DNA of 51,673 nucleotides, from IMG/VR virus record IMGVR_UViG_3300050196_000040. One strand, 5' to 3'. This DNA is from a virus. The position numbers were made by a program, and so were the translations under genes. The notes under the pieces were generated by a model. The model saw nothing but the letters and a program-made list of their open reading frames with translations. It made no database searches and was not told where the DNA came from. Shown piece by piece: positions 20,244-40,091 of this stretch (its first letter is position 1; every line of letters starts with the position of its first letter).

Positions 20244-20411
20244 GGTTCCTAATAGAGTTTGTCCAGCGAACAGGCTTTACCGCTAGGTGCACCGAGCGAT
20301 CCCTTATAGGGTGACAGAGTTAGCGCCTAGGCCGTGTGGGAGTTAGGGGAAGACTGGCAAGCATGCACATATCCCAAGGCATGCACCTATTAATTCTTTT
20401 AAGGGGGTTAT

Positions 20412-20588
20412 ATGTCCGCTCAAGTAGTCCTGTATTTCAAGTCCGATTGTGAAGCTAGTGCTATATGGCAAGCCAAGCAAATCAATGCCATGTTTGCTAA
20501 ACGGGGTCATACTAATCCGGTAGTGCATGTTGTCCATACATATCAGGGATGGACTGTGCAAGAGATAGGATGTGTACTGCCTTTATAG
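20412..20588 (+). CDS. Hypothetical early protein (58 aa), not in ORF track
   Basis: AAGGGGG RBS 5 nt before the ATG; MSAQVVLYFKSDCEAS..; palindrome variant at 20390 immediately upstream; the antisense track ORF 20343..20561 is less likely. Confidence 0.5.
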   Translation: MSAQVVLYFKSDCEASAIWQAKQINAMFAKRGHTNPVVHVVHTYQGWTVQEIGCVLPL

Positions 20589-20712
20589 CTTTACACATTC
20601 TTTACAATGGCGTAAGTTTCATGTAAGGAAAGCATGTGTGTAATGTAAGTGTCAGCGGGAATTGTCCCATTAATTGTTTTAACTGTGCACCTAGGTGCGA
20701 AAGGGTATATAT

Positions 20713-21345
20713 ATGACCGATATAGCAGAGATGACCATCATTCAATCTGGTAAGGGCAAAGCGCCTACTAATAGCGACAAGGCTAAAGGCGCTGCACTCG
20801 CTGTAGTTTGTATTAAGTATGGCGTTAAGCGCATGGAACAAGAGGAAAAGGAAGCCGGAAAGCTGGGTGCCATTGTCAAGTCTATCAATGATTTGGCTCG
20901 GGATGGTCATGCGGAATTCCGTGCTGAATTGACAAAAGAGCTAAACCTTATTAAAGAACTTCGCCAGTCTACAGGGGTAACTAAAGAGCAAACCGCCGGC
21001 TATTCTTTCACGTCTTTTGAAACACTGTGCAGCAATTGGAAAACCATTAGCGCAGCTATTGAGATGGGTTATAGCGTCTTGAATGACGATATGGCACAAA
21101 AGCCTTGGAGTCTGGTGCTTGCTGAATCGGTGCAAATGAAACATGCTCACGCGTCCAATGCAGCCGAAAATGGTACACCAACCAAGCGCAAAGTGGGACG
21201 TAAATCCACGCCTATGATTGATAAGGCTATAAAGGCCATGAATGATCTGGATACAATCGAAGATATGATGGCCTTGTATAAGGCGCTGGAGGCCCGTATG
21301 ATTGCAGCTAAAGCCATTGAGGCTCGGGAAACTGCACCAGTCTAA
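20713..21345 (+). CDS. Hypothetical early protein
   Basis: Track ORF 20695..21345; ATG 20713 preferred; helical and charged; followed by two hairpins. Confidence 0.6.
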   Translation: MTDIAEMTIIQSGKGKAPTNSDKAKGAALAVVCIKYGVKRMEQEEKEAGKLGAIVKSINDLARDGHAEFRAELTKELNLIKELRQSTGVTKEQTAGYSFTSFETLCSNWKTISAAIEMGYSVLNDDMAQKPWSLVLAESVQMKHAHASNAAENGTPTKRKVGRKSTPMIDKAIKAMNDLDTIEDMMALYKALEARMIAAKAIEARETAPV

Positions 21346-21439
21346 AGCTTGACATTAGGAAAGCTTTAACCCCTAGCCTATTATGAGTGGGCTAGAGTTA
21401 AAATTTTTAACTAGCCCTTATGGGTTTGAAAGGTAGGCC

Positions 21440-21703
21440 ATGAAATACAATTTTATTCTGGGTGCTTCGCAGTCCGTTAGCTTGGACAAATGCCTTGTTG
21501 TGGCTGTGCTTGCAATGCGTAAATGCGGCAATAATGTGGAAAGCATCAAACTCTTGCGTCATGCTGGTAAAATTGACGGACTCAAGGAAGCGAAGGACTT
21601 ATCTGAATTTATTGCGGATCAGTTCGCATTCTCTACTGATGGGACGATGGCTGTTAAACGCACCCTTCCTATGGTTCGTTGGACAGGAACATCTGAAGAC
21701 TGA
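21440..21703 (+). CDS. Hypothetical early protein
   Basis: 87 aa; palindrome 21398 upstream; RBS aaggtagg. Confidence 0.55.
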   Translation: MKYNFILGASQSVSLDKCLVVAVLAMRKCGNNVESIKLLRHAGKIDGLKEAKDLSEFIADQFAFSTDGTMAVKRTLPMVRWTGTSED

Positions 21704-21760
21704 GTTAAAATTTTTAATTGCCTTACCGGGAATGGGTTAGTTGTTTTAAAAGGGTTTAGT

Positions 21761-21943
21761 ATGGGCACTATTTCTAAATTGTTTGTTGTTACTGCTAAAT
21801 CTATGGGCCCATATATGGACTATAGTTTAGTTACCGATAATGCTAGTCTTGCCTGGGAAGCATACCAAGCTCTATGCAATATGCCGGGTGCATATCGTTC
21901 TATTGTTTTTATTGGTAATACAAGGTTAAACCAAGAGACTTAA
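21761..21943 (+). CDS. Hypothetical early protein
   Basis: 60 aa; palindrome 21705 upstream. Confidence 0.45.
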   Translation: MGTISKLFVVTAKSMGPYMDYSLVTDNASLAWEAYQALCNMPGAYRSIVFIGNTRLNQET

Positions 21944-22034
21944 AATTTTTAATTCAAGAGCACATACAGGGATGTATTAAGTATATCTCTGCCTGTACTT
22001 TTGCAGGAGTTGCCAAGTATGGCAAGGAGTTAAA

Positions 22035-22283
22035 ATGTTTAATTCATCTTCGTTCGGGTTTGTAAAGGTTGCATACGTTGCTGACTATGGCAACTTCCAC
22101 ATCATCCCCCATTCAATTGAGGGCTTGGATTCATCCAAGATGAATGACCGACCCTCCCAACCACGCAAGCAAAAGAGACGCATCAACCCCAATCAAGGGC
22201 AGTTCCTCACTCAAATGTGGCGTGAGTCTGGACGCAAGTTGTACGATGGTAAACGCCGTACACTGGCATTCAATCAGCACTAA
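22035..22283 (+). CDS. Hypothetical basic early protein
   Basis: 82 aa; the ATG lies inside palindrome 22030 (GTTAAAATGTTTAAT); AAGGAG RBS. Confidence 0.55.
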   Translation: MFNSSSFGFVKVAYVADYGNFHIIPHSIEGLDSSKMNDRPSQPRKQKRRINPNQGQFLTQMWRESGRKLYDGKRRTLAFNQH

Positions 22284-22316
22284 AAGCAATTAAAACTTTT
22301 AATTCATAGGAAATAT

Positions 22317-22451
22317 ATGACCTACATTATCGGATTTTTCATTGTGTGCCTTGTCATTGTTGGCATTGCATTCTGGGTTGAACTCATGCTTGCAAAGGCA
22401 GAGGATGACGTATTTATGACTAGCCCCAAAGGACTGCGCCACTATGACTGA
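22317..22451 (+). CDS. Small membrane protein (44 aa), not in ORF track
   Basis: MTYIIGFFIVCLVIVGIAFWVELML.. single TM helix; palindrome 22290 lies 14 nt upstream; replaces antisense track ORF 22299..22508. Confidence 0.5.
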   Translation: MTYIIGFFIVCLVIVGIAFWVELMLAKAEDDVFMTSPKGLRHYD

Positions 22452-22740
22452 ATCAATTAAAACTTTTAACTCAAAAGAAAAGTTTAACCCCCGCTTTCTT
22501 TCTACCAACCATGAGGACTATATGCCTAAACGTAAGCCGGTTGTCAATTACCGGGAATCTACCCACCAACGCATTGAGCTTGGAAAGCCTGCTATTGTGT
22601 TTCCTATCAACCACTATGCAGACGATAGGGTGAGCAACACCAAGGAAGTTATTACATCTCCTGTTGTCAGCATTCACCGCAATTCTGAATTGCAAGTCTC
22701 AGAGTTTGAAACATTCAACACCATCTATCGTCGGATTTAA
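22444..22740 (+). CDS. Hypothetical early protein
   Basis: 98-aa ORF with ATGA overlap; alternative ATG 22522 behind GAGGA would place palindrome 22457 upstream of the gene. Confidence 0.5.
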   Translation: MTESIKTFNSKEKFNPRFLSTNHEDYMPKRKPVVNYRESTHQRIELGKPAIVFPINHYADDRVSNTKEVITSPVVSIHRNSELQVSEFETFNTIYRRI

Positions 22741-22770
22741 ATCTTTTAATTGTTTTCAAAAGGAGTTATT

Positions 22771-23064
22771 ATGTCGTCTATTGTTCGTTACTTCCACATT
22801 CGCACTGGAACTAAGGGTGGGGCTACTGTCCGTGTAGCTGGTGACACAAACCTATTGGGTCAGGTTGATGTACAATTCGCTTTGTGCTCAAAGCGGGACA
22901 ACTTTGTGAAGAAATTGGGTCGGTCATTTGCTGAGGCTGCCCCTGTCAAGGTGGTGCCCCTTCGCTACTTGCCCCAAGAGTTGCAACGTATTGCAGACAA
23001 GGCACGGAGTCGTCACACGACTGATTACACATATGGCATCAAATACTTCCTCCCTAAGGAATAG
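22771..23064 (+). CDS. Hypothetical early protein
   Basis: Start moved to ATG 22771 behind AGGAG (22761); contains a GGGTCGGTCATTTGCTG copy. Confidence 0.6.
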   Translation: MSSIVRYFHIRTGTKGGATVRVAGDTNLLGQVDVQFALCSKRDNFVKKLGRSFAEAAPVKVVPLRYLPQELQRIADKARSRHTTDYTYGIKYFLPKE

Positions 23065-23117
23065 ATTCTTCACTGCGTTCCAGAATCATAGTTAAAACTT
23101 TTAATTGAAAGAAATAT

Positions 23118-23279
23118 ATGTTCATCAAGAAACTTCACCCCCATGTGTTCGATGTGTTCCTCGGTAATGGCTTCAACAATTGGACCCGTGTTCGTCGTGG
23201 TCATTGGGGTGTGTCAGTCATTGCTGGCAATCGTTTGCCCAAAGCCATTATGAAGGACATTCAAGATGCGCTCGCTTAA
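23118..23279 (+). CDS. Hypothetical early protein (53 aa), not in ORF track
   Basis: ATG 14 nt after palindrome 23092; MFIKKLHPHVFDVFLGNGFNNW.. Confidence 0.4.
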   Translation: MFIKKLHPHVFDVFLGNGFNNWTRVRRGHWGVSVIAGNRLPKAIMKDIQDALA

Positions 23280-23658
23280 GTTAAATCTTTTAATTCTCTC
23301 TAGTGTTGTTGCACTAGCCGCTTGTAGTAAGGATGAACCCCAATATGTACAGCCTCCCATCTATCAACCCCAACCTCAAGTTACCCAAGCTGTCCCCCAA
23401 CAGCAGCCTCAGGTTGTCTACCAGCAGGCGGCTCCTCAAGGTAATAACGATATGCTCATTGGTGGCATTATGGGCTATATGCTTGGTGGTGCTGGCAATC
23501 GTGGCGGAGGCGGGAGTGCTGGCGGTAATAGTCCTGTCACAAACCATACCACTACGGTGAATAAAACCATTGTGAACAAGACATATGTGCAGCCAAAGCC
23601 TAACTACTCTGCACCTCGTTCGTATAGCAGCCCTAGCTATGGAGGCCGTAGAAAATGA
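23266..23658 (+). CDS. Lipoprotein with Q/P-rich linker and glycine-zipper segment
   Basis: MRSLKLNLLILSSVVALAAC (signal peptide + lipobox LAAC); GGIMGYMLGGAGNRGGGGSAGG. Confidence 0.7.
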   Translation: MRSLKLNLLILSSVVALAACSKDEPQYVQPPIYQPQPQVTQAVPQQQPQVVYQQAAPQGNNDMLIGGIMGYMLGGAGNRGGGGSAGGNSPVTNHTTTVNKTIVNKTYVQPKPNYSAPRSYSSPSYGGRRK

Positions 23659-23759: not shown

Positions 23760-24046
23760 AAGGAACTCCGTTATACAACGCACTGGCAGAAAGATGGCGT
23801 CGGCACGCTTCATGGCCCATGATACTTAATGACATAAATAGTGTAGACGATGGCCATCTTGTAGAGGTGGACAAAAATGCAACTGATATTAATGGAGCAT
23901 TTACTTGGGACCGCACTCCTCAAGGCCATCATTATTGGTCCACTATCAACATGATTGATCGTCGGCTTAGAGCAGGAGTAGATGTAACTGGTGTGCAAGT
24001 TAATAAACCAAAGGAGGTAGTAAAGTATGCAGCAGAATATCACTAA
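23750..24046 (+). CDS. Hypothetical early protein
   Basis: 98-aa ORF overlapping its neighbours by a few codons. Confidence 0.5.
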   Translation: MAIEGTPLYNALAERWRRHASWPMILNDINSVDDGHLVEVDKNATDINGAFTWDRTPQGHHYWSTINMIDRRLRAGVDVTGVQVNKPKEVVKYAAEYH

Positions 24047-24242
24047 CATACAACAGCATTCACGATGGAATACTGAGGGCCGTAAACCATCTTGGTACAG
24101 AGATCAACTTGTGTCTCTCTCTGCGCCTGACACAAAGGTCGGTCATTCTGCACTAGCCAAGCGTATGTTCATTGGAAGTGGTGAGGATTGCATTGTGGAT
24201 GAATTAAATGTTTTAACTCAGGAGGAAGTATGTACATTGTAA
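24027..24242 (+). CDS. Hypothetical early protein
   Basis: 71 aa; AGGAGG RBS. Confidence 0.55.
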   Translation: MQQNITNIQQHSRWNTEGRKPSWYRDQLVSLSAPDTKVGHSALAKRMFIGSGEDCIVDELNVLTQEEVCTL

Positions 24243-24451
24243 TTAGGCGGAGTATGGATGGGAGACTGATAGGTTCTATCACTCCATTCCAGCATCCCTC
24301 CCTGAAATCTGCACAGGCAGAGTGTAAAAGATTGGCAGGCATAATTCCAAACTCTACATTCTACCCCATGAAAGCACTCAAGGGATTTAAAAACCAGGGA
24401 GTGGTTAAAGAGCCTAAACTTGGAACTAAGTATGCTCAAGTATTCAATTAA
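24230..24451 (+). CDS. Hypothetical early protein
   Basis: 73 aa; AGGAGG RBS. Confidence 0.55.
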   Translation: MYIVIRRSMDGRLIGSITPFQHPSLKSAQAECKRLAGIIPNSTFYPMKALKGFKNQGVVKEPKLGTKYAQVFN

Positions 24452-24911
24452 AAAGAAGTATGGCTTCTTGGCTGCAATGGAAAATCTTGGGGAACGCTGG
24501 CGTAATGGTGTACGGGTTCATCCTGAGCCAGCCAATCGACTCCCTGCTATTGCTGGCCCCGCTGTGGGTGGTACGTTGCAAGATGAAATGGATATGCCTT
24601 GGAACAAGATTGATTATAGTCGTTGGTATGATATAAATGTAATGGGTCGATTCAAGGTGGGTGACTTGGTTACTCCACACTATATGGCGGAGCAAGTGGG
24701 GTTTCTTCCATACCATTGGAAGATTACCTATTGTAATGAGCTTCACCATACTGTAAAGTTTAGTAGGTCTAATGACCAACCTAAGTGCATTATAGTGCAG
24801 AACCTACAGAACGGGTTTACTTCCAAGTGCCCTAAAGAACTGCGCTTGCTTACTGAGAAGGAGATAGCTCTTGTTAACCTACAGAATATCAAAGTCCAAG
24901 GCACCGCGTAG
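24432..24911 (+). CDS. Hypothetical protein
   Basis: Track ORF 24420..24911 (TTG); first ATG at 24432. Confidence 0.5.
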   Translation: MLKYSIKKKYGFLAAMENLGERWRNGVRVHPEPANRLPAIAGPAVGGTLQDEMDMPWNKIDYSRWYDINVMGRFKVGDLVTPHYMAEQVGFLPYHWKITYCNELHHTVKFSRSNDQPKCIIVQNLQNGFTSKCPKELRLLTEKEIALVNLQNIKVQGTA

Positions 24912-25215
24912 AGTAGGTCAAGCAGTTAAAACTTTTAACTACGAAGATAAGGAGAAGCTTCTCCATTCCAACCTGAACAAGACATTCTTTAGGGTTGGTG
25001 ATATTGTCAGGTTTAAAAAACCTAGGCGCAATCCTCTAGTAGGAACTGTGATTGAGATTCAATCCAAGGTATCCGAAGTAACGTGGGTCAATGGTGGTAC
25101 ATCACCAATGAATATTATTTTGGAGGTTGTTAAGGGAAGCAACGGAGCTACCCCAAAGACAGAGCGAGTGAAAACCAACGTGAAGAAACTTCTTTTTGTG
25201 GAGGCTGCGAAATGA
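24871..25215 (+). CDS. Hypothetical protein (SH3/KOW-like VGDIVRFKK segment)
   Basis: TTG start 7 nt after GAAGGAG; 114 aa. Confidence 0.45.
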   Translation: MLTYRISKSKAPRRVGQAVKTFNYEDKEKLLHSNLNKTFFRVGDIVRFKKPRRNPLVGTVIEIQSKVSEVTWVNGGTSPMNIILEVVKGSNGATPKTERVKTNVKKLLFVEAAK

Positions 25216-25532
25216 ATGACTGTCTAGTTACAGTGGTAGATGTTGACCAAGGTGTGCGTGGTGAGTGGCGAGGCATACACAATTATGCTCGTGGTATTGC
25301 CACACATGAGGACTTTGATGGAGAGATTGAAGGTCTTTCCAATCAAGAGGTGCTGCGTCGTGTCAAGATGTGGAGTTGTCTTGAGAAAGATGTGCCCATT
25401 GTTGTAGAGCAAATGAGCCAAGAGTGGGTTGGCTATGAGATTAAAGTTTTTAAATTGAACCAAGTTTCTGTGCGTGTTCCGGGTGAGCTACGCAAGAAAC
25501 AACTAACCAAAGATGGGGTACTACCTGAATGA
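25212..25532 (+). CDS. Hypothetical protein, first gene of the amidoligase cassette
   Basis: ATGA overlaps at both ends. Confidence 0.55.
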   Translation: MNDCLVTVVDVDQGVRGEWRGIHNYARGIATHEDFDGEIEGLSNQEVLRRVKMWSCLEKDVPIVVEQMSQEWVGYEIKVFKLNQVSVRVPGELRKKQLTKDGVLPE

Positions 25533-26185
25533 AAAAGATTCTTTATACTATTATGTTTGGTGGCGACTGCTATCCATTCACTGACTTGGCTCAACAGATT
25601 ATTACCGTGCGTAACGTCGATCAAATCGTGGAGAAAGATGCAGTGATGGTTGTATGGGGTGGGGCTGATATTAGTCCTGCTTTGTATGGTCATAAGCAAT
25701 CCCTTACTACGCATTGCTACAAGCAACGTGATGATATTGAGTGGGCTGCTATGAAGAAGGCTGCACAGCTAGGTATCCCCATCATTGGTGTATGCCGTGG
25801 AGCACAGATGCTTTGTGCCTTGGCTGGTGGTTTCTTGATTCAGGACACTACTGACCATGCCGGACGTGGGCATCAAGTGACAACAAAAGAGGGTCGGTCA
25901 TTTGCTGTAAATTCTATCCACCATCAGATGATGGCTGGTTTGGAGAATACAGAGCATGAGCTTCTTGCATGGGTTGATGTTCCCCGTAGTCGGCATTACA
26001 TCTATAAAGATGATGTAAAATACCATACCCCAGAGGGCTTTAAAGAACCAGAGATGGTTTATTTCCCGAAAGTCAAAGGATATGCCATTCAATGGCATCC
26101 CGAAGGAATGTCGGAAGATTGTGAAGCAACCAAGTACATCATGGAGCAGTATTATGCCCGAGAAAACCTCTCCGTTGGAGTTTAA
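25529..26185 (+). CDS. Class I glutamine amidotransferase-fold thiol peptidase (peptidase C26 / PuuD-like gamma-glutamyl hydrolase)
   Basis: IIGVCRGAQML nucleophile elbow and AIQWHPE His-Glu motif. Confidence 0.75.
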   Translation: MKKILYTIMFGGDCYPFTDLAQQIITVRNVDQIVEKDAVMVVWGGADISPALYGHKQSLTTHCYKQRDDIEWAAMKKAAQLGIPIIGVCRGAQMLCALAGGFLIQDTTDHAGRGHQVTTKEGRSFAVNSIHHQMMAGLENTEHELLAWVDVPRSRHYIYKDDVKYHTPEGFKEPEMVYFPKVKGYAIQWHPEGMSEDCEATKYIMEQYYARENLSVGV

Positions 26186-26513: not shown

Positions 26514-26827
26514 TATATAGTGTTTACATTGCATCATTCATGGGTGCTTATGCTAATGAAAGGCCCCAGAATGTGGCAGCTCTCATCAAGGCTGCACCAG
26601 AGGATGCCTCGTTTATCTTCATCCCTACAATTAGGCAGATAGAGGAGTTTAAAAATTGGCTGACTAAGTGGAAGTTAAATAATTTAATTCAATATGCTAG
26701 TCCAGAGCCATTTATTAATGGAAGTCACCCAACAGAGGGACCAAGGTTGTATATCTATGTGCTTTCTAAATCTGAAATAAAGGAGAGTGGTTATGTCACA
26801 GCAACTAACATTAGAGGACAAGCGTAA
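26510..26827 (+). CDS. Hypothetical protein, paralogue of 27092..27493
   Basis: ATGA-coupled start MIYS..; shares SFIFIPT..Q.E.F..W..KWKL..NGSH with its paralogue. Confidence 0.55.
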   Translation: MIYSVYIASFMGAYANERPQNVAALIKAAPEDASFIFIPTIRQIEEFKNWLTKWKLNNLIQYASPEPFINGSHPTEGPRLYIYVLSKSEIKESGYVTATNIRGQA

Positions 26828-30191: not shown

Positions 30192-30192
30192 T

Positions 30193-32506: not shown

Positions 32507-33231
32507 TGTCCAAATTCTTACATCATGAGCAGTGTCCTAGATGTGCTGCTAACGGCTCTGATCGCAGGGGGAATAATCTTGGCGTGTGGGCTGATGGCGC
32601 TTGCTATTGCTTCTCGTGTGGTTACAGAGTTGGAGCAACTTACCGACAATTAAAACTTTTAAATGAGGAGAATGTAAATGATAAAGAAAAAGCTGTGCTC
32701 CCTCGTGATTTCTCAAGAGATATTCCAGCAGAATATTGGCAATGGCTCCTCCAGTATTCCATCCCCTATTCCTACTGGCAAACCTATTGCGGCTATTCTG
32801 AGAAAGACAAGCGACTTGTATTCACTGTCGGCAATCCCACAATGTTCTCCATCGGCAGGAGTCTCGATAAGTCTGTGGGAACAAGTAAATGGAAGGTCTA
32901 TGGAGATAAATCTTCTTACGTTGAAGTCATCAACGACAAAATATCTGGACAAGTTGTTCTCGTTGAAGACCTTATATCCGCCCACAAAATTGGACTAGCA
33001 GGATTCACTGCGATTCCTTTGTTTGGTACCAGTATAGGAGATATACACATTAAAAAGCTACAAGCTCTAAAACGCCCTGTAAGCCTCTGGTTGGATGCTG
33101 ACCAGTACTCGCTACTAGCTCGTAAGATCGGACGCCTACAGAGCCTTGTAGGGGCCTCTGTGAGGCATATAACAACTAGACTGGACCCCAAGGGCTACTC
33201 CTCCATAGAAATTAAGGAAATATTGACATGA
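32506..33231 (+). CDS. DNA primase (zinc ribbon + TOPRIM)
   Basis: CPRCAANGSD..CYCFSCGY zinc ribbon; VVLVEDLISAHK and LWLDADQ TOPRIM-like acidic motifs. Confidence 0.75.
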   Translation: MSKFLHHEQCPRCAANGSDRRGNNLGVWADGACYCFSCGYRVGATYRQLKLLNEENVNDKEKAVLPRDFSRDIPAEYWQWLLQYSIPYSYWQTYCGYSEKDKRLVFTVGNPTMFSIGRSLDKSVGTSKWKVYGDKSSYVEVINDKISGQVVLVEDLISAHKIGLAGFTAIPLFGTSIGDIHIKKLQALKRPVSLWLDADQYSLLARKIGRLQSLVGASVRHITTRLDPKGYSSIEIKEILT

Positions 33232-33491: not shown

Positions 33492-33658
33492 AAGTAACAT
33501 GGACGTTTACAAAAACTTACACAAAAGAGGAATGGGACACATTGCCAGTTAGTGAAAGTAATGACCTAATTAAGATAGGTTACCTACAAATAATGGATGA
33601 ATGGGAGAATTCTGTAGGTTTTGACGATCTCTCTCTCTCCTGCTCTATTGACAAGTAA
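33485..33658 (+). CDS. Hypothetical protein (57 aa), not in ORF track
   Basis: ATG overlaps the upstream stop; its 3-prime end carries the -35 of the 33648 promoter. Confidence 0.4.
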   Translation: MVEVTWTFTKTYTKEEWDTLPVSESNDLIKIGYLQIMDEWENSVGFDDLSLSCSIDK

Positions 33659-33676
33659 CAGAATTTATGTTAAACT
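33648..33676 (+). promoter_or_regulatory. Sigma70-type promoter with extended -10
   Basis: TTGACA-17 nt-TAAACT with TGt immediately upstream of the -10. Confidence 0.55.
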
Positions 33677-33728
33677 AGAATATATATTATATAATATATA
33701 TATTAAATAAATATATATATATATATAT

Positions 33729-33760: not shown

Positions 33761-33766
33761 TATATA

Positions 33767-33798: not shown

Positions 33799-33918
33799 AT
33801 AGGAATTAAACTTTTTAATTGGAGAGAAATTATCTACTTACCAGAGAGAGACTTACTTGTACTACTACTGAGTAAGGAATCATTTAACAACTACTACCAA
33901 TACCTAGACCAAGGATAC

Positions 33919-35085
33919 TTGCGAGACAACTACAAAGAACTGTCTCACCTATACACTGCTTTGAAAGAATGTCATTCTCTTATTGAGACTGACTTATCCC
34001 TTGAAAGTTTCCAAGCATTCTTCTTTAGCAGATTCCCAGACCTAGACAAAGAGATTTATCTCTCCTTGTTTAAAACGCTCCAGGACACGAAAATAGATGC
34101 TGGTATGGGGGTAGCCTTACTCAAGCAAATTAAACAGCGTAGACAGGCTCTAATCCTGTCTGAGGCCTACTTTAAATACTCAAATGGAAACCTAACTCGT
34201 GAACAACTCAAATCAGTCCTTGATGATACTCGCACAGAGAGCACAGAAACGGCAGAAGAATTTGAATTCGTCACTACTTCACTATCATCAATCATCGAAG
34301 ACATATTCCAAAAACCTGGACTACGATGGCGCTTGGATGCGCTTAACAAATCTCTTGGAAGTCTCCGCAAGGGCAACTTCGGATTTATCTTTGCAAGACC
34401 AGAGGCCGGAAAAACTACCTTCCTAATCTCCGAAGTTAGTTATATGATGCAGCACCTACGGGATGAAGATGGGTCGGTCATCTGGTTTAATAACGAACAA
34501 GTTGGTGCTGAGGTTATGCTGCGTATGTACCAAGGATACTTTGGTTTACGTCTTGAGCAAGTTAGAGCCAACCCAAAGAAGTATGAGCAAGAGTTTATAG
34601 AGCAGACAAAAGGAAGATTCCTCCTAGTAGATAATGCTGCTATTGACAAAGGATATGTAGAGCGAGTAGTTAAAAGATTTAATCCAAGTTTGATTGTAAT
34701 AGATCAGATTGATAAGGTTAAAGGGTTTGCAGCAGACCGTGAAGACCTACGACTCGGAGCCATCTACATATGGGCACGAGAGTTGGCTAAACAATACTGC
34801 CCTGTTATTGGTGTTTGTCAAGCGGATGGTTCGGGTGAAGGTCAGAAGTGGCTCACCATGGATAATGTCTCTAGTGCAAAGACTAGCAAGCAGGCAGAAG
34901 CAGATTGGATTTTAGGCATAGGTACTGTCCATCAAGAAGGGATGCAGTTTATTCGCTATTTGAATATTAGCAAGAACAAACTCCTTGGAGACACGGACAC
35001 TATTCCCCGCCTGCGACATGCTCGATTAGAAGTGTTAATCGAGCCTGAGATTGGCCGATACAAGGATTTAATAAAGTATGAATGA
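33919..35085 (+). CDS. DnaB-like replicative helicase
   Basis: FIFARPEAGKTTF (Walker A), SLIVIDQID (Walker B), GVCQADGSG; the frame is open back to 33820 without a canonical start codon. Confidence 0.8.
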   Translation: MRDNYKELSHLYTALKECHSLIETDLSLESFQAFFFSRFPDLDKEIYLSLFKTLQDTKIDAGMGVALLKQIKQRRQALILSEAYFKYSNGNLTREQLKSVLDDTRTESTETAEEFEFVTTSLSSIIEDIFQKPGLRWRLDALNKSLGSLRKGNFGFIFARPEAGKTTFLISEVSYMMQHLRDEDGSVIWFNNEQVGAEVMLRMYQGYFGLRLEQVRANPKKYEQEFIEQTKGRFLLVDNAAIDKGYVERVVKRFNPSLIVIDQIDKVKGFAADREDLRLGAIYIWARELAKQYCPVIGVCQADGSGEGQKWLTMDNVSSAKTSKQAEADWILGIGTVHQEGMQFIRYLNISKNKLLGDTDTIPRLRHARLEVLIEPEIGRYKDLIKYE

Positions 35086-36272
35086 CCACAGTAACATTTG
35101 ATGTAGAGACTAAAATTGTAGCAAAAGGAAATCCGTTCACGGCGAGTGGCAAGTTGATTTCCTACTCTATTAAACCCGATGACAAAGACGTGTCTTTCAA
35201 CTACCATACAAGCATTGACTTCTTGACTGAACTGCGAGCATACATGCAGCAGGCTAAGTTGCTTGTAGGTTTTAATTTGAAATTCGATCTATCTTGGGCA
35301 GCACGACATGGCATATATCCACCAGACCGCATTAGGGTTTGGGATTGCCAGCTTGCAGAGTTCATCCTAACAGGACAGAAAGGAAGCTACCCGTCACTAG
35401 ACGAGTGTTGCGCCAAGTACAATCTAGGAACTAAGGATGACAAGATTGCTGAGTATTGGAAGATGGGCATTTGTACAGAGTTTATTCCTAAAGAGGAACT
35501 AGAGTTCTACAACAACTTAGATGTAGACCTAACGTATAAACTCTATCTTGCTCAGAAAGCTGTGATGACAGAGGCACAGTTAAAACTTTTAATGGTGGCA
35601 GGACTCGATCTACTCGTCCTTGCTGAGATGGAACAGAATGGAGTTAAATTTGACACTAAGCTCTGCACTACTAAAGCCGAGGAAACCAAAGAGCGCCTCG
35701 AAGCACTCACAAAAGAGCTACTTGCTTATTCCCCTACTCCCGATATTAATCTTGATAGTGGGCAGCATCTGTCTTGTCTACTCTATGGTGGGAAGTTTGA
35801 AATAGATTATGTCACACAAGAGACTGCCTACTATAAAGGAAACTCGAAGGCAACTGGGGCAAAGAAAGGCGATGCTTATGAAAAGTCCGTACATACGCTT
35901 ATTGTCTTTGACTGTCCAAGCCTATTTACTCCACTCCCTAAAAGTGAAACGAAACTCAAGAAAAAACTTACATCTGGTGAAGAAATAACAATTTATGTTA
36001 CAAACGAAGACACCCTCAAACAACTCAAGTGCAAAGGACAGTACCAGCGCAAGTTGGTACAACTCCTCCTTGAACGGGCAGAGCTTGCCAAGCTACTTGA
36101 CACCTACTATTCTGCCCTACCTACTCTATTAGAAGAAATGGAATGGGGTGATGTGCTTCACCCAACTTATAACCAGTGCGTAGCAAGAACTGGACGACTA
36201 TCGAGCAGCCGCCCTAACGCACAAAACTTTTCAAAAGATGTAGATGAACTTTTGATAAGTGCTTATGAATAG
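35082..36272 (+). CDS. DNA polymerase I family, part 1 (3-5 exonuclease + N-terminal polymerase half)
   Basis: TFDVETK (Exo I), GFNLKFDL (Exo II), YNNLDVDLTY (Exo III), ARTGRLSSSRPNAQNF; stops just before motif A. Confidence 0.85.
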   Translation: MTTVTFDVETKIVAKGNPFTASGKLISYSIKPDDKDVSFNYHTSIDFLTELRAYMQQAKLLVGFNLKFDLSWAARHGIYPPDRIRVWDCQLAEFILTGQKGSYPSLDECCAKYNLGTKDDKIAEYWKMGICTEFIPKEELEFYNNLDVDLTYKLYLAQKAVMTEAQLKLLMVAGLDLLVLAEMEQNGVKFDTKLCTTKAEETKERLEALTKELLAYSPTPDINLDSGQHLSCLLYGGKFEIDYVTQETAYYKGNSKATGAKKGDAYEKSVHTLIVFDCPSLFTPLPKSETKLKKKLTSGEEITIYVTNEDTLKQLKCKGQYQRKLVQLLLERAELAKLLDTYYSALPTLLEEMEWGDVLHPTYNQCVARTGRLSSSRPNAQNFSKDVDELLISAYE

Positions 36273-36295
36273 CCATATCAACTTAGGAGTATAAT

Positions 36296-36769
36296 ATGGA
36301 AGATGTCAAACAGCTATATGAAACAACAGAATTAACCATTGCGCAGATTGCGAAAGAATGTAATATTCCTTTTTATCATGTATATAAATATATTAAGGCT
36401 AATTATTCTGTAGAGTATAGAGCTAATAGAAAATCCCTTTGCTATAGAAATAGCAAACTAGGTGAAAAGAATCCTATGCTAGGAAACTTTCTTGAGAATC
36501 ATCCAAGATACTTGGGAGAAATTTCAGATAACAAAGGTTACCTAATGAAGATAAAGCCTAGTTGGTATACAGGACGAAAGAAAAGTATCCATGTGTTTGT
36601 GCACCACTTGGTTATATGTGAGTCTCTAGGAATCACAGAAATTCCTACAGGATATTGTGTACATCATAAAGATCATAATCCATTAAATAATTTAATTGGT
36701 AATCTTCAGTTGATGACTTTATCAGACCATACAAAACTTCATTTACAGGAACGAAATGCCACTGGTTAA
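36296..36769 (+). CDS. HNH homing endonuclease inserted in the DNA polymerase gene
   Basis: HHKDHNPLNNLIGNLQLMTLSDHTKLH; own RBS (TAGGAG); 3-prime end overlaps the restart of the polymerase by 14 nt. Confidence 0.8.
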   Translation: MEDVKQLYETTELTIAQIAKECNIPFYHVYKYIKANYSVEYRANRKSLCYRNSKLGEKNPMLGNFLENHPRYLGEISDNKGYLMKIKPSWYTGRKKSIHVFVHHLVICESLGITEIPTGYCVHHKDHNPLNNLIGNLQLMTLSDHTKLHLQERNATG

Positions 36770-37481
36770 TGTAGATGTAAAGAGCCTTGAAAACGTTGTG
36801 GCTGCTGAGTTGTCTCAGGACAAAGTAATGATGCAGGAAATTAGAGAGAAGCAAGACCTACATGCTAATAATCAAAAGGCATTTGGTTTGCCTAGTAGGT
36901 TGGTAGCTAAGGTGTTGGTCTTCCGTATTCTTTATGGTGGTGGGGCATATTCATTTGCCAACGACTCAGACTTCACTGCAACATCTACATCAGTTAAGTA
37001 TTGGGAGAAAGCAATTGAAGCTTTCTATGACAAATATAAAGGAGTAAAGGTTTGGCATGAGCAACTTATTCAGACTGCCCAACGAGAAGGTCGTCTTGTC
37101 ATTCCCAGTGGACGACACTTCCCGATTTCGCCAATGGTTAATAAATGGAACGGAGGTATGGACTGGCCCATCACAGTCATTAAGAATTATCCTGTCCAAG
37201 GGTTTGGAGCCGACTTGGTTATGCTTGCACGACTCGAAGCTAGGAAACGACTTAGAGCTTCTGGACTTGAGTATAAACTCATATCTACGATACATGATTC
37301 CATTGTCGCGGACTGTCCCAGCCATGCTGTTCGGGATGTTGGCAGGATTCTTTATGACTCGATAGAGGCTGTTCCAGCTCTGTGTAAAAGAGTGTTTGGA
37401 TATGACTTTAGCCTCCCTCTTACAAGTGAAGTACAATATGGTCCAAATAAAAAAGAGATGAAAGATTTAGTGTTGACATAA
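36756..37481 (+). CDS. DNA polymerase I family, part 2 (motifs A, B, C)
   Basis: VDVKSLENVVAAELSQD (motif A), RLVAKVLVFRILYGGG (motif B), STIHDSIVAD (motif C). Confidence 0.85.
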   Translation: MPLVNVDVKSLENVVAAELSQDKVMMQEIREKQDLHANNQKAFGLPSRLVAKVLVFRILYGGGAYSFANDSDFTATSTSVKYWEKAIEAFYDKYKGVKVWHEQLIQTAQREGRLVIPSGRHFPISPMVNKWNGGMDWPITVIKNYPVQGFGADLVMLARLEARKRLRASGLEYKLISTIHDSIVADCPSHAVRDVGRILYDSIEAVPALCKRVFGYDFSLPLTSEVQYGPNKKEMKDLVLT

Positions 37482-37502
37482 TCCTCTGGGATATGTTATA
37501 AT
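37473..37502 (+). promoter_or_regulatory. Consensus sigma70 promoter with extended -10
   Basis: TTGACA-18 nt-TATAAT with TGt before the -10; the -35 overlaps the last codons of the polymerase gene. Confidence 0.65.
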
Positions 37503-37555
37503 ATTATATAGAGACAAATAATTCTCTAAGTTAAATAATTTAATAGGAAAATAAA

Positions 37556-38074
37556 TTGAAAATTAAGATTTTGGATGTTACTGTCGAGAACATCGTCAAA
37601 GGCAAGAGCCGTTATTCTAAAGCTGCTGTAACCTACACCTACAATGGTGAGGCACGGACGCAAAACATTATGAGCTTTACTAATCCAGCTATTTTTAAAG
37701 CTGTGCAGGAAAAGGTTGGTCAGGAAGTTGAAATCACCATCACCAAGAATGCAGCAGGATACAACGAGTGGGCCTCTTTGGATGACATTGGTTCGCCAGC
37801 GTCAGTACCGACGCCTCAAGGCGCTCCGACTCCTAGCTCGGCTGCACCCACACCCACACGAGTCACTGGCTCAAATTACGAGACACCCACAGAGCGTGCC
37901 CAGAAACAAGTTTACATTGTCAAACAGTCTTCTATCTCGGCTGCTCTCTCCCTTGCATCCGCTAATAAAGAAAAGATTACGAAAGAAGAAGTGGTTGCCA
38001 CAGCACAGTTCTTTGTAGACTATGTATTTGACACAGACACTTCTATGGACTCTCTTAAATCTGACGAACTGTAA
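37556..38074 (+). CDS. Putative single-stranded DNA-binding protein
   Basis: TTG start after AGGAAA; beta-rich N-domain, Pro/Ser/Ala linker, acidic C-terminus DTDTSMDSLKSDEL; sits between the polymerase and the exonuclease. Confidence 0.4.
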   Translation: MKIKILDVTVENIVKGKSRYSKAAVTYTYNGEARTQNIMSFTNPAIFKAVQEKVGQEVEITITKNAAGYNEWASLDDIGSPASVPTPQGAPTPSSAAPTPTRVTGSNYETPTERAQKQVYIVKQSSISAALSLASANKEKITKEEVVATAQFFVDYVFDTDTSMDSLKSDEL

Positions 38075-38791
38075 TTGACTAAGCTACTCATTGATGGTGA
38101 CTTGTTTGCATTTAGGTGTGCAGCAAGTGCCGAAAATGATAGCGAACATATTGCTTGTGCCCGTATGGAAACGTTGCTTGACACTTGCCTGACAGAAACA
38201 AAGTCAGATGAATTCGCAATGTTCCTAACGGGACCAACCAACTTTCGTTATCAAGTCTACCCTGAATATAAGGCCACACGGGTAGATAAATATCGGCCTA
38301 AGTATTTGAATGTTTGTAAAGACTATCTTCGAGATGTATATGATGCTGTAACATCTGACAACTGCGAAGCTGATGACCTCATGGCTATTGCCCAATCTTC
38401 ACAACGAGACACCATTATATGTTCTCTTGACAAAGATATGTTGCAGGTTCCCGGTCGGCATTATTCATGGGCTATTGAAGGTGGGCCACTTAATAAACGA
38501 TGGTTTAAAGAAGCAAAGCTACAGGAAATATCTCCTATCGAAGGACTTCGTAAATTCTATTATCAAATGATTGTTGGAGATAGTTCGGATAACATTAAAG
38601 GTGTAGATGGTATGGGGCCTGTAACAGCTAATAAGCTGCTGGCAGGGCTAGACACTGAGGAAGAAATGTTTGACGCTGTACGGGCTGCCTATGGCCTTGA
38701 TGAGGCTATGCTTATGAATGGACAAGTCCTTTGGCTACAGCGCAATCCAGGAGAGATATGGAGGATGCCATTTGAGGGAGAAATACAATGA
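38075..38791 (+). CDS. 5-3 exonuclease / flap endonuclease
   Basis: LLIDGDLFAFR, CEADDLMA, SLDKDMLQV, GDSSDNIKGVDGMGPVTANKLL (H3TH). Confidence 0.85.
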   Translation: MTKLLIDGDLFAFRCAASAENDSEHIACARMETLLDTCLTETKSDEFAMFLTGPTNFRYQVYPEYKATRVDKYRPKYLNVCKDYLRDVYDAVTSDNCEADDLMAIAQSSQRDTIICSLDKDMLQVPGRHYSWAIEGGPLNKRWFKEAKLQEISPIEGLRKFYYQMIVGDSSDNIKGVDGMGPVTANKLLAGLDTEEEMFDAVRAAYGLDEAMLMNGQVLWLQRNPGEIWRMPFEGEIQ

Positions 38792-39128
38792 TGGAATTTG
38801 GACCCCTGCTAGGTTTAACTCTTTTGTTACCAGCATTCTGCGTTCTGGTAGCCGCCGTTGGCCTCCTAAGTATCAAGTGCTTAATGAAGCCAAAACCGAA
38901 AAAGCTATCAATGCTAAATCCGGCAGACTGGCCCAACATTATAGATGCAATGGATGTGGAAAAGAGTTCCCCGCGAAAGATGTACAAGTTGACCACATCA
39001 CCCCGATTGGATATGACAAAAGTTGGGATGACTGGATCAATGGATTATTCTGTGAACGGGAGAATCTTCAAGTCCTATGCAAGCCTTGCCACAAAGAAAA
39101 AACACAACTAGAAAAGAAAAAGAAATAA
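38772..39128 (+). CDS. HNH endonuclease
   Basis: CNGCGKEF..VDHITPIG..NLQVLCKPCHKEKT; TTG 38772 six nt after GGAGGA preferred over track start 38718. Confidence 0.75.
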   Translation: MREKYNDGIWTPARFNSFVTSILRSGSRRWPPKYQVLNEAKTEKAINAKSGRLAQHYRCNGCGKEFPAKDVQVDHITPIGYDKSWDDWINGLFCERENLQVLCKPCHKEKTQLEKKKK

Positions 39129-39323
39129 ATGCTAATTGAAGTTGAGTCCAAGGACTCGGATGGAAACATTGCCTTCCACGGCAAACTTAATAAAACAGAA
39201 GTATCCTTTGTTCTAAACGTTGGAATCAATTACCTGTTGGCTAATGGGGCTATGCCATTGTTTACAGGTAAGGATGATGAAGAACTTGGTATTGTAGCTG
39301 CAACCCCTAAGATGGCACAATGA
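39129..39323 (+). CDS. Hypothetical protein
   Basis: 64-aa ORF, TAAATG coupling. Confidence 0.5.
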   Translation: MLIEVESKDSDGNIAFHGKLNKTEVSFVLNVGINYLLANGAMPLFTGKDDEELGIVAATPKMAQ

Positions 39324-39341
39324 CATGGCTAAAACACATTT

Positions 39342-40091
39342 GTGCTCCCAGACTGTCAAGTTAGGGCTGGTGATGACACTACTTTTCTTCATGCCACTGG
39401 TAACTACTTGGTTCGCAAACAACCAGATGTGGTGGTATGCATTGGGGATTTTGCTGACCTTCCTAGTCTTAGTAGTTATGATATTGGCAAGCGCTCCTTT
39501 GAAGGACGACGATACGCAACAGACATCCGTGCCACTAAAGAGGCAATGTCGGCACTATTAGAGTCAATTAAAATATTTAATGAGCGTGCTAAAAAGAATA
39601 AAGAAAAACAGTACCGCCCTCGAATGGTTATGTGTCTTGGCAATCACGAGAATCGCATTAACCGCGCAGTCAATGATGACCCGAAGTTGGATGGCGTACT
39701 CTCAGTAGATGACCTTCAATACAAAGAAGCTGGTTGGGAAGTCCATCCTTTCCTTGACGTGGTTATTGTGGACGGCATTGCGTACAGTCATTACTTTGTC
39801 ACCGGTGTTGCTGGTCGTCCAGCTAGTAGTGCACAAGCTCAATTGAGAAAGACAAACATGAGTTGTATTGCAGGACACCAGCAGTCATTACAGATTGCTA
39901 CTAGCACTAAAGCAGACGGAACTCTCCTAACTTCTGTAATTGCAGGGAGCTTCTATGAGCATGATGAAGACTATCTAGGTCCGCAAGGAAACAAACATTG
40001 GCGTGGATGCCTTATGCTGCATGATGTTGACAATGGAGCATTCGATCTTATGAACATTAAACTAGACTGGTTAAAGAAGAAATATGCTTAA
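39342..40091 (+). CDS. Metallophosphoesterase (calcineurin-like)
   Basis: VVVCIGDFADL, MCLGNHENR, AYSHYF, AGHQQ; GTG start with no obvious RBS (see finding). Confidence 0.75.
   Translation: MLPDCQVRAGDDTTFLHATGNYLVRKQPDVVVCIGDFADLPSLSSYDIGKRSFEGRRYATDIRATKEAMSALLESIKIFNERAKKNKEKQYRPRMVMCLGNHENRINRAVNDDPKLDGVLSVDDLQYKEAGWEVHPFLDVVIVDGIAYSHYFVTGVAGRPASSAQAQLRKTNMSCIAGHQQSLQIATSTKADGTLLTSVIAGSFYEHDEDYLGPQGNKHWRGCLMLHDVDNGAFDLMNIKLDWLKKKYA

Follow-up and report, generated by a model that had tools for sequence, protein, structure and literature searches.

The window, by which we mean the whole 51,673-nt (51.7 kb) stretch of DNA analysed, comes from an apparently virulent phage and has a leftward late arm and a rightward early/middle arm. 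It carries 26 exact copies of the palindrome TTAAA-N3-TTTAA, all at the coordinates listed in the original prediction. Confinement to the plus-strand arm, which had also been claimed, holds for 25 of them (21.4-39.6 kb) but not for the last, at 44343, which lies in a leftward gene; the late arm is essentially without sites. The two TTAAT variants (20390 and 20670) and three one-mismatch copies (15397, 31728 and 43320) described earlier are real, and three one-mismatch copies can be added to that list (19547, 19858 and 43156). Extended to its full length, the site is palindromic over 17 bp, ARTTAAA-WNW-TTTAAYT. The early region is organized as follows, with site strand given as a point:

20388..20404 (.): variant copy TTAATTCTTTTAA; ATG 20412 of first small early ORF 9 nt downstream
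20668..20684 (.): variant copy TTAATTGTTTTAA; ATG 20713 of the ~210-aa first early protein 30 nt downstream
20713..21345 (+): family F gene, first sizeable early gene; 210 aa, all-helical, invariant G-R-K motif
21396..21412 (.): copy 1, intergenic; ATG 21440 29 nt on
21703..21719 (.): copy 2, adjoining the stop of 21440-21703; ATG 21761 43 nt on
21938..21954 (.): copy 3, containing the TAA stop of 21761-21943
22028..22044 (.): copy 4, containing ATG 22035; same arrangement at L079:9202 and L083:7383
22288..22304 (.): copy 5, intergenic; ATG 22317 14 nt on
22455..22471 (.): copy 6, codons 5-9 of 22444-22740, reading SIKTFN
22735..22751 (.): copy 7, containing the TAA stop of 22444-22740; ATG 22771 21 nt on
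23090..23106 (.): copy 8, intergenic; ATG 23118 13 nt on
23279..23295 (.): copy 9, directly 3' of the 23118-23279 stop, within the 5' end of 23266-23658
24202..24218 (.): copy 10, LNVL in the frame of 24027-24242; ATG 24230 13 nt on
24924..24940 (.): copy 11, 14 nt after the stop of 24420-24911; ortholog site in L079

The middle region and the DNA beyond it contain the following features:

25439..25455 (.): copy 12, within 25212-25532; ortholog sites in L081, L083
26191..26207 (.): copy 13, 7 nt after the glutamine amidotransferase stop; L079 copy at the same junction
26673..26689 (.): copy 14, within 26498-26827; ortholog sites in L079, L083 despite ~40% protein identity
27704..27720 (.): copy 15, COOH-NH2 ligase gene, from 72 codons in; ortholog sites in L079, L081, L083, L003
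28242..28258 (.): copy 16, ligase gene 3' end, ATG 28262 5 nt on; ortholog sites in L079, L083, one-mismatch version in L081
28928..28944 (.): copy 17, within 28434-29069; ortholog sites in L079, L081
29746..29762 (.): copy 18, within amidoligase gene; ortholog sites in L079, L081, L083
31726..31742 (.): one-mismatch copy, ATP-grasp gene; ortholog is an exact copy, L003:4145
32648..32664 (.): copy 19, within primase gene; ortholog site in L081
33648..33676 (+): sigma-70-like promoter TTGACA-17-TAAACT, ahead of the helicase/polymerase block
33804..33820 (.): copy 20, leader, ~120 nt 3' of the promoter-like 33648-33676
34668..34684 (.): copy 21, within DnaB-like helicase gene
35578..35594 (.): copy 22, within DNA polymerase (N-terminal part) gene
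36681..36697 (.): copy 23, within HNH endonuclease gene
37473..37502 (+): perfect sigma-70 consensus promoter, 12/12 positions, with TG
37529..37545 (.): copy 24, at ~+22 from the 37473-37502 promoter; TTG 37556 12 nt on
39566..39582 (.): copy 25, within metallophosphoesterase gene
43154..43170 (.): one-mismatch copy, close to the rightward arm's end
43318..43334 (.): weak copy, one mismatch in the 13-mer, two in the 17-mer
44341..44357 (.): copy 26, sole exact copy off the rightward arm, within a leftward 1471-aa gene

A site thus stands at nearly every junction between tiny early genes, and sites recur every 0.5-1.1 kb within the longer middle genes. Early copies lie 9-43 nt ahead of start codons, overlie stop codons or, as had been noted for the copy at 22030, hold a start codon (ATG 22035). 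The earlier description, with one copy 14-50 nt ahead of almost every tiny gene, is broadly correct, except that the copies at 22457 and 23281 lie just within genes. Sites in the middle region are spaced more regularly than expected by chance (CV 0.60, P = 0.035), and adding the one-mismatch copy at 31728 strengthens this regularity (CV 0.46, P = 0.0009). Intergenic sites are better matches to the 17-mer than coding sites.

The over-representation is extreme. Fewer than one copy had been expected, and dinucleotide-preserving shuffles gave a mean of 0.17 and a maximum of 1, compared with the 26 observed; for the 17-mer at no more than two mismatches, we found 31 matches against 1.76 expected. 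The spacer is exactly 3 nt: gaps of 0-2 or 4-8 nt between the arms yielded no copies in the window, and lone half-sites showed no enrichment. We next consider the coding copies, of which there are 16. Synonymous-codon shuffles (n = 300) failed to reproduce this count, giving 2.08 +/- 1.3 with a maximum of 7. Moreover, 16 of the 17 peptide positions in the rightward arm that are compatible with the motif carry it, as against one of three in the late arm, and the two frames that avoid the TAA stop, both of which were predicted to be used, are split 7:7 as judged from coordinates. Because the shuffles, the filled positions and the equal use of frames agree, these data show that selection acts at the level of the DNA and not on the peptide, as originally suggested for the nucleic acid.

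Comparison with relatives, which the original prediction had named as a possible refutation, came out in its favour. The closer relatives L079, L081 and L083 contain 16, 12 and 14 copies, and every one of these is in the early/middle arm; counting the window, restriction to a single arm is seen in four genomes. The copies of all three relatives stand mostly at orthologous positions, and this includes most of the coding sites. The ten fixed positions are 82% identical versus 56% for the flanks, and the centre varies. Early genes turn over fast, yet the motif persists at their junctions. More distant relatives carry TTAAC-N3-GTTAA, ATTAA-N5-TTAAT, TTACA-N3-5-TGTAA, TATAGA-N5-TCTATA or TCCTAA-N2-TTAGGA, and these palindromes likewise sit in the early arm. 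For example, L008 has its own motif variant, with one mismatch, at the amidoligase position of copy 18, and at the primase position of copy 19 it has TTACAACCCTGTAA where the window has TTAAAACTTTTAA.

We built a site matrix from 77 sites in six genomes and found reverse-complement symmetry across positions -8 to +8, with an unconstrained centre. Position -7 is A47 C2 G18 T10, and position +7 gives exactly the same counts when mirrored. However, no covariation was found between degenerate mirror positions: -7 and +7 are complementary in 37 of 78 sites versus 34.7 by chance (P = 0.30), and the other mirror pairs are also at chance complementarity (-8/+8, P = 0.15; -1/+1, P = 0.53). RNA hairpin energies of the sites are only 0 to -3 kcal/mol. 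The lack of covariation argues that base pairing is not the selected property and, together with the matrix symmetry and the weak hairpins, indicates that the palindrome represents two independent half-sites on double-stranded DNA rather than a hairpin.

These findings disfavour the suggested RNA hairpin or processing signal, and we consider it unlikely that the sites act in early/middle mRNAs as a translational-repressor operator or endoribonuclease site that shuts off or processes messages, in the manner of the MS2 coat-protein operator or of T4 RegA/RegB. Read on one strand, the arms are different sequences, yet their degeneracy is mirrored exactly; and half of the copies are mid-gene, distant from starts, yet are kept at orthologous positions. 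Several observations nevertheless speak for such a signal. All copies but one lie within sense transcripts of the rightward operons, and about half are 5-45 nt before a start, at a stop or holding an ATG. A Shine-Dalgarno sequence or ATG falls within the motif in several relatives: in L006, L011, L019 and L008, the Shine-Dalgarno occupies the motif centre and the ATG follows directly. This arrangement fits an mRNA-level role, and it may inflate the counts in those relatives. Spacers of 3, 4 and 5 nt occur inside one genome in the TTACA clade, a range that a hairpin loop could show and that would be unusual for a rigid dimer. Finally, the L017 motif has an asymmetric centre and is oriented, with 10 of 11 copies in one orientation, which counts against a symmetric dimer.

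Could a host protein bind the sites? A nucleoid-associated protein or global regulator, recruited by the phage to organize or regulate its early arm, would suit an AT-rich, symmetric site of 15-17 bp whose TTAA-N5-TTAA core is common to a whole clade, and no recognisable DNA-binding domain was found among the window's proteins. The earlier comparison to Fis-type sites, however, is not supported. The Fis consensus requires G/C at +/-7, whereas position -7 here is mostly A; the arms are unchanged in 26/26 exact copies, far above Fis-type specificity, and they differ in close relatives. Relatives with ~50% identical proteins use TTACA, TTAAC, ATTAA, TATAGA or TCCTAA, although host-specific variants of one protein are possible. 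Overall, we regard recruitment of a host factor as quite improbable.

An unconventional promoter, whether an N4-type hairpin promoter or a box for phage-redirected host RNA polymerase, seems very unlikely, even though one copy precedes nearly every tiny early gene. The 5-nt arms around a 3-nt centre recall the hairpin promoters of the N4 virion polymerase, but covariation between mirror positions is absent. Half of the copies stand in the middle of genes, and others lie within or past start codons; the site is fully symmetric, no -10-like sequence is conserved at a constant distance from it, and neither an RNA polymerase nor a sigma factor homologue was found. The palindromes lie in transcribed DNA, 3' of the promoter-like sequences that start at 19432, 33648 and 37473 and over none of them; the sequence at 19432 is a sister copy of the 'ctaTTGACAa' box of the 33648..33676 promoter.

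The sites might alternatively serve a symmetric DNA enzyme (endonuclease, nickase, base-modifying enzyme or recombinase) or a structural role, providing localized interruptions, entry points for replication or recombination, or a means of shuffling modules among the tiny early genes. Dimeric DNA enzymes typically recognise palindromes whose centre is free, and the even middle-region spacing and the persistence of the motif among fast-changing early genes would suit such a function. Consensus-associated nicks are known in related podophage groups: phage tf has 14 nicks at the consensus TACT/RTGMC (PMC3517423). Known nick consensus sequences, however, are asymmetric and on one strand only, and a separate oriented motif, GGTCGGTCA, is a better fit to that pattern. 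Symmetric cutting would put ~30 breaks in the phage's own genome, the window yielded neither a methyltransferase nor a recombinase, and such a site would explain neither why the copies keep to a transcription arm nor why they are conserved within conserved enzyme genes. An enzyme site is thus improbable.

The role that we favour, one of those first suggested, is an operator for a dimeric protein, consistent with the symmetric matrix, the independent half-sites and the fixed spacing. Specifically, we tentatively propose, at somewhat less than an even chance, that the ~30 palindromes are operators or roadblocks scattered along the arm and bound by a phage-encoded homodimer that lowers early/middle transcription, most likely as a global regulator. 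The binder is most probably of phage origin, and a candidate is family F, the ~210-aa first early product, by co-occurrence and position only. Every locus that has TTAA/TTACA palindromes and sufficient sequence upstream contains family F, no other locus does, and the family F gene is preceded or flanked by palindrome sites; the co-occurrence is confounded with common descent. The predicted family F model is a bare helical bundle, for which no structural match was found, and the L010 member is only 15% identical to that of the window, though both genomes share the motif. In addition, if the first early gene encoded a shut-off factor, that factor would immediately repress its own synthesis, which counts against the operator reading, as does the finding that none of the window's proteins has a recognisable DNA-binding domain.

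In the operator model, a two-fold symmetric, sequence-specific protein would bind the 17-bp site on double-stranded DNA, each subunit contacting one A-R-T-T-A-A-A-W half-site and the central base remaining unread. The ~30 sites are distributed along the rightward early/middle DNA, which comprises two or three long transcription units. Since they lie in transcribed DNA, 3' of sigma-70 promoters, we propose that the bound protein would act on elongating host RNA polymerase, or would coat and bridge the arm; we infer that early/middle expression would be lowered as infection proceeds. Such a shut-off would be Cro-like, but exerted through many dispersed 'stoperator-like' roadblocks. The arrangement recalls stoperators, from which it differs in the symmetry of its sites and in its occurrence in an apparently virulent phage.

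The window carries 26 exact copies of the palindrome TTAAA-N3-TTTAA, at the coordinates that the original prediction had assigned to them, against 0.17 in shuffled sequences. The flanks widen the motif to a 17-bp palindrome, A-R-TTAAA-W-N-W-TTTAA-Y-T, which at two or fewer mismatches is matched 31 times (1.76 expected); 29 of the 31 matches fall within 20.6-43.3 kb. The window is a whole phage genome of 51,673 bp (G+C 43%), laid out as follows:

1-19.3 kb and, across the ends, 43.7-51.6 kb, leftward: late arm, with large terminase, portal, capsid, a 1471-aa protein and lysozyme
20.4-43.7 kb, rightward: early/middle arm, opening with about 15 tiny ORFs of unknown function
25529-32276, rightward: the block after the tiny ORFs, with glutamine amidotransferase, COOH-NH2 ligase, a 211-aa unknown, amidoligase, class-II amidotransferase and ATP-grasp
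next genes, rightward: primase, DnaB-like helicase, HNH-split family-A DNA polymerase, exonuclease, phosphoesterase and ribonucleotide reductase

About five variant copies accompany the 26 exact ones in the early/middle arm. The spacer in the window is 3 nt without exception, isolated half-sites are not enriched in the rightward arm, and copies in the middle region are spaced more evenly than random, no interval being shorter than 482 nt. An example of a 30-bp duplex carrying one site is AGTTAAAACTTTTAACT. Literature searches found no published description of the palindrome or of the phage clade.

The excess withstood codon-preserving shuffles: 16 coding copies were observed, whereas synonymous shuffling within each gene (n=300) left 2.08 +/- 1.3 (maximum 7). 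In the rightward arm 17 peptide positions are able to spell the motif synonymously, and 16 of them do so; the late coding set, though larger, offers three such positions and holds one copy. These figures indicate that the protein sequences have been shaped by the motif, and not the converse. As had been noted from the sequence, both open reading frames are used, in a ratio of 7:7 when worked out from gene and copy coordinates.

Conservation in related genomes, on which the original prediction had staked itself, was likewise found: the motif is kept in relatives, mostly at orthologous coding sites. Three closer relatives (L079, L081 and L083), reached via a conserved 97-aa early protein and having COOH-NH2 ligases 70-81% identical to that of the window, each carry 12-16 copies of the window motif within the 12-14 kb of early/middle arm covered, whereas the 6-8 kb of late arm covered has no copy; the motif is also absent from a locus comprising the late arm only (TerL 82% identical). 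Most coding sites are orthologous, among them those at ligase codon 72, at the ligase 3' end, and in the 211-aa protein, the amidoligase and the primase, and at these sites the arms are retained while the 3-nt centre varies. Identity over the aligned sites is 82% at the ten fixed positions versus 56% in the flanks, even where the protein is only ~40% identical. Together, these results demonstrate that the palindrome is real, strongly selected and conserved across a clade of uncultivated phages. Among relatives, the more distant of which were reached via the COOH-NH2 ligase, it takes these forms:

TTAAA-N3-TTTAA in L003 and L010
TTAAC-N3-GTTAA in L012
ATTAA-N5-TTAAT in L009, and in L019 (3 exact and 20 one-mismatch copies in 15.5 kb)
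bare core TTAA-N5-TTAA in L006, L011 and L013
TTACA-N3-5-TGTAA in L004, L005, L007 and L008
TATAGA-N5-TCTATA in L017
TCCTAA-N2-TTAGGA in the Alcaligenes phage (11 of 11 copies in the early/middle arm or the divergent control region)

The primase gene has one position where the window reads TTAAAACTTTTAA and L008 reads TTACAACCCTGTAA, which indicates that the site was kept while its sequence changed. Three observations fit less well: spacers in the TTACA clade range from 3 to 5 nt, the L017 motif has an oriented, asymmetric centre, and in several relatives a Shine-Dalgarno sequence or ATG lies inside the motif, where matches derived from ribosome-binding sites may inflate the counts.

Some more distant relatives have multi-copy palindromes of their own. 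The L017 palindrome, TATAGA-YACYR-TCTATA, occurs in 11 copies (L017:325-15608) with an asymmetric centre that has one orientation in 10 of the 11, and two copies lie within a longer repeated cassette ending in a ribosome-binding site and ATG. Locus L088 (6019-8901) contains 4-5 copies of TAACAT-N2-ATGTTA, and locus L065 (268-17869) six copies of ATTAAT-N4-ATTAAT.

We found that a matrix of 77 sites pooled from six genomes is reverse-complement symmetric from -8 to +8, around an unconstrained centre. Position -7 (A47 C2 G18 T10) is identical to its mirror at +7, position -8 (54/13/4/6) has 52/10/9/6 at its mirror, and asymmetry starts only beyond +/-8, where coding and Shine-Dalgarno context dominates. 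Inverted identical half-sites with fixed spacing and mirrored degeneracy are what a generic operator for a symmetric dimer presents, and the half-sites vary independently, as a dimer would have them: within-site complementarity at the mirror pairs -7/+7, -8/+8 and -1/+1 is at chance. Because the degenerate mirror positions do not covary, base pairing is not the selected property. This bears on the earlier suggestion that the motif acts as an RNA hairpin or processing signal, and on its reading as an RNA operator or RNase site, for which the predicted fold energies amount to 0 to -3 kcal/mol; a role at the mRNA level is kept alive for those relatives with a Shine-Dalgarno sequence or ATG inside the motif, yet for the palindrome as such we regard it as improbable. 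Mirrored degeneracy without pairing fits duplex DNA only, since a single strand has two different arm sequences. Judged from the sequence, the palindrome is thus probably a duplex-DNA site for a protein with two-fold symmetry.

That protein could belong to the host nucleoid, and a resemblance to Fis sites had been proposed. Fis sites are degenerate 15-bp sequences with G at -7, C at +7 and an A/T-rich core. Here, however, -7 is mostly A (47 of 77) and the arms are invariant and lineage-specific, so that the Fis comparison fell away and a host nucleoid protein appears a poor candidate in general, with at best a small chance of being correct.

The placement of the sites was compared with the recognisable sigma-70-type promoters of the rightward arm:

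19432, + strand: sigma-70-type promoter
33648, + strand: sigma-70-type promoter
37473, + strand: sigma-70-type promoter, consensus 12/12

Palindromes lie downstream of these promoters (e.g. at ~+22 and ~+120) and throughout the operons, and none overlaps their -35 or -10 elements. In the short early intergenic spaces the order is stop codon, site, Shine-Dalgarno sequence and start, and the 17-mer is matched better in intergenic than in coding copies. This layout is as expected for sites needed at a given density per transcription unit and put where the sequence tolerates them. Ordinary promoters do not explain the palindromes, since promoter-like matches are no commoner in the window (47) than in shuffles (46.5). 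The palindrome might instead be an unconventional promoter element, as once suggested, for instance of the N4 type; searches of PHROGs, Pfam and PDB sequences found no RNA polymerase homologue, the 1471-aa protein included, and the motif shows neither covariation nor a stable fold, which leaves this reading highly improbable.

The control regions have further features. A composite region occurs in two copies (19429-19625 and 33645-33800), both of which open with the box ctaTTGACAa.t..cagaatt, a sigma-70-like promoter, and continue with TATATA-type low-complexity DNA and then AT-rich inverted repeats with 12-14-bp arms, GAGAATAATATC-(TTTGTT or AACAAA)-GATATTATTCTC, at ~19500-19535, 19575-19604 and 33729-33758. 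The pairing of a TATATA block with a TTGAC promoter is found twice in the related locus L001 and also in L002; the composite region could be a promoter with an UP-like leader, an RNase III site or a replication origin. Facing the late arm, a perfect minus-strand sigma-70 consensus promoter (TTGACA-17-TATAAT with TG, 19373-19345, region 19345-19380) has its -35 element embedded in a different palindrome, TTGTCTATT-TGTC-AATAGACAA (19359-19380), which is likely an operator predicted to delay late transcription. The ~0.8 kb (19620-20400) that separates the early promoter region from the first early ORF contains no convincing ORF, tRNA or Rfam match, and relatives have a comparable gap of 0.6-1.3 kb.

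Among the window ORFs we found no RNA polymerase, sigma factor, integrase or methyltransferase, and about 40 early/middle ORFs gave no Pfam or PHROGs match to a DNA-binding, sigma, polymerase, methyltransferase, integrase or ParB family. The 1471-aa protein has no family match or PDB sequence match, and tRNA and Rfam scans of the window were both empty. Megablast against 50,697 phage records returned no nucleotide-level relative. By TerL, the nearest isolates are Alcaligenes phage vB_Af_QDWS535 and the Manatee Spring metagenomic phage (48-52% identity), and the gene order is common to all three. A first scan of 185,579 species genomes found no relatives; in a second scan of the same genomes, TerL relatives of at least 43% identity were confined to contigs of phage size or below, which had been binned into MAGs of unrelated phyla, and TerL matches within long bacterial contigs had just 26-30% identity. 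These genomes thus contained no prophage copies, and neither host nor prophage is inferable from them. Nothing points to lysogeny, and the phage is apparently virulent.

Two further observations concern its genes. The 25529-32276 block is also present in LUZ24/tf-like, phiEco32-like and other podophages. The family-A DNA polymerase (region 35082-37481) is encoded in two pieces, 35082-36272 and 36756-37481, which an HNH endonuclease gene (36296-36769) separates; it is also two-part in L001 and L002, of which L001 is without the HNH insert.

The palindrome of the window behaves most like dispersed operator or roadblock arrays, yet it is symmetric and largely intragenic. Cluster A mycobacteriophages (L5, TipsytheTRex) have more than 20 copies of a 13-bp stoperator across the genome, both within promoter regions and in the short gaps between genes of the transcribed arms, and the bound repressor is proposed to halt both initiation and elongating RNA polymerase (PMC9283540). 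Stoperators are asymmetric and oriented with transcription; a monomer that combines an N-terminal HTH with a 'stoperator' domain binds them, and they serve the lysogenic immunity of temperate phages (PMC9283540). The window resembles these systems in its many dispersed copies and in a motif that differs among related phages. In contrast, its site is symmetric, half of the copies lie in coding DNA, no early ORF matches an HTH or repressor family, and there is no integrase and no prophage relative in the 185,579 species genomes. Because asymmetry, orientation and a monomeric HTH repressor of temperate phages are all lacking here, this is not a strict stoperator system.

Other arrays share different features. 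In Streptomyces phage phiC31, 17-bp conserved inverted repeats (CIRs), present in many highly conserved intergenic copies in the early region, are bound by the repressor c gene products, and one of them autoregulates the binder's own gene. The window likewise has many conserved copies of a 17-bp inverted repeat in its early region, but the CIRs of phiC31 lie between genes and not within them, the phage is temperate, and its binder is known. The KorB operators (OB, TTTAGCSGCTAAA) of IncP plasmid RK2 and the C1 operators dispersed in phage P1 provide a dozen or more 13-17-bp sites per mobile element for one global regulator, some of them far from promoters. KorB, however, belongs to the ParB family, C1 sites lack symmetry, and neither a ParB-like nor a C1-like protein was detectable among the window early ORFs. 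Lambda Cro, the first gene product of an early operon, binds 17-bp pseudo-palindromes as a symmetric dimer and lowers early transcription during lytic growth. Cro has few operators, which overlap promoters, whereas the window has ~30 sites within transcription units; no Cro/CI-type fold was detected in the window.

The array stands in an apparently virulent phage without a recognisable regulator. We propose that a phage-encoded homodimer would occupy it, and that the bound array would turn the early/middle arm down, either as a roadblock that host RNA polymerase runs into or by forming bridges or a coat along the arm. Anatomy and the analogy with stoperators suggest this mechanism, and the full statement, a duplex site for a symmetric protein with transcriptional shut-off included, seems to us close to an even chance, if slightly on the doubtful side.

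A symmetric protein might instead act on the site as an enzyme, in nicking, modification or recombination. Phages with consensus-associated nicks (tf, the LUZ24 group, the phiKMV group and T5) repeat a short consensus 9-14 times within a single part of the genome, keep it at much the same places from one related phage to another, and have the amidoligase/COOH-NH2 ligase gene block in common with the window phage. The nick consensus, however, is asymmetric and on one strand only (PMC3517423), whereas the motif is palindromic, and we consider an enzyme site improbable. The nick-site pattern fits a second motif of the window, GGTCGGTCA, rather than the palindrome.

This second motif, GGTCGGTCA(T), is oriented and non-palindromic, with nine copies against 0.12 expected:

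22918, 24137, 25892, 27670, 28557, 31680 and 34472, + strand: copies of GGTCGGTCA(T)
44052 and 22153, - strand: copies of GGTCGGTCA(T)

In eight of the nine copies the motif runs along the sense strand of the genes at that place. Of the seven rightward copies, five are translated as G-R-S-(x)-F, each in a different, unrelated protein but through identical codons, GGT CGG TCA; the others read in other frames. The positions are orthologous in L079; related loci have GGTCGATCA(T) (L001, with 9-11 copies, L006 and L009-L012), GGTCGGTCAT (L015) or GGTCGATAA (L017). The sequence is conserved clade-wide, whereas the palindrome varies. By its sequence the motif fits the nick-site pattern of tf and T5, or may be a primase or Chi-like signal.

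As to the protein that would bind the palindrome, no window ORF has a known DNA-binding domain. Two early proteins, of 97 and 53 aa, are conserved, also in relatives without the palindrome, and on that ground the 97-aa protein (22771-23064) was dropped as a binder. It has more than 100 metagenomic homologues at 60-77% identity, next to early ORFs that are almost unconserved, and its confident AlphaFold model (pLDDT 91.5) matches nothing in the PDB and otherwise only viral proteins without a name. Family F, the ~210-aa protein encoded by the first early gene of any size (20713-21345, +), occurs wherever a locus combines TTAA/TTACA palindromes with sufficient upstream DNA and is absent from all of ~45 others, and its gene is preceded or flanked by palindrome sites. 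It shows a weak but significant relationship to the first-gene proteins of L004 and L007-L013 (HMM E-values 1e-6 to 1e-9), retains an invariant G-R-K motif although the alignment is elsewhere just 15-23% identical, and is modelled as helical at medium confidence, with no fold or structural match. Profile searches found no annotated homologue, and the first early proteins of L001 and L017 show no homology to it. L010 has the same motif as the window, yet its family F protein is only 15% identical, so that the family tracks the motif imperfectly. The co-occurrence of family F with palindromes is confounded with phylogeny, and family F as the binder is a lead, not a finding.

In its most extended form, which we regard as tentative and on the unlikely side, the proposal is that a clade of uncultivated, apparently virulent ~50-kb phages would encode a novel, fast-evolving dimer, possibly family F with its invariant G-R-K arm, acting on ~30 regularly spaced symmetric sites, even within enzyme-coding sequence, to silence the early/middle arm as a whole or to organise it. 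Protein and site would co-evolve by lineage (TTAAA, TTAAC, TTACA, TATAGA, TCCTAA), as a symmetric lytic-phage counterpart of stoperators with an unknown fold. If so, a clade of environmental phages would time gene expression unusually, dispensing with a phage polymerase, a sigma factor and a handful of operators at promoters in favour of dozens of high-affinity intragenic sites, strong enough to fix the amino-acid sequence at 16 places. The clade would then provide a clean natural setting in which to study how roadblocks or silencing control elongating RNA polymerase. Each lineage would contribute a protein/site pair orthogonal to the others and usable as a tool, and there would be a handle on the function of a conserved unannotated early protein family. 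More generally, orthologous positions in metagenomic relatives suffice to date and validate motif arrays.

The late arm has a repeat of its own: an identical 26-nt stretch, gttgaggcaTTAACATCATTAAgcca, occurs at 4176-4201 and 5196-5221, near the 5' ends of the adjoining leftward late genes 3623-4246 and 4280-5269, and probably encodes an N-terminal peptide common to both.
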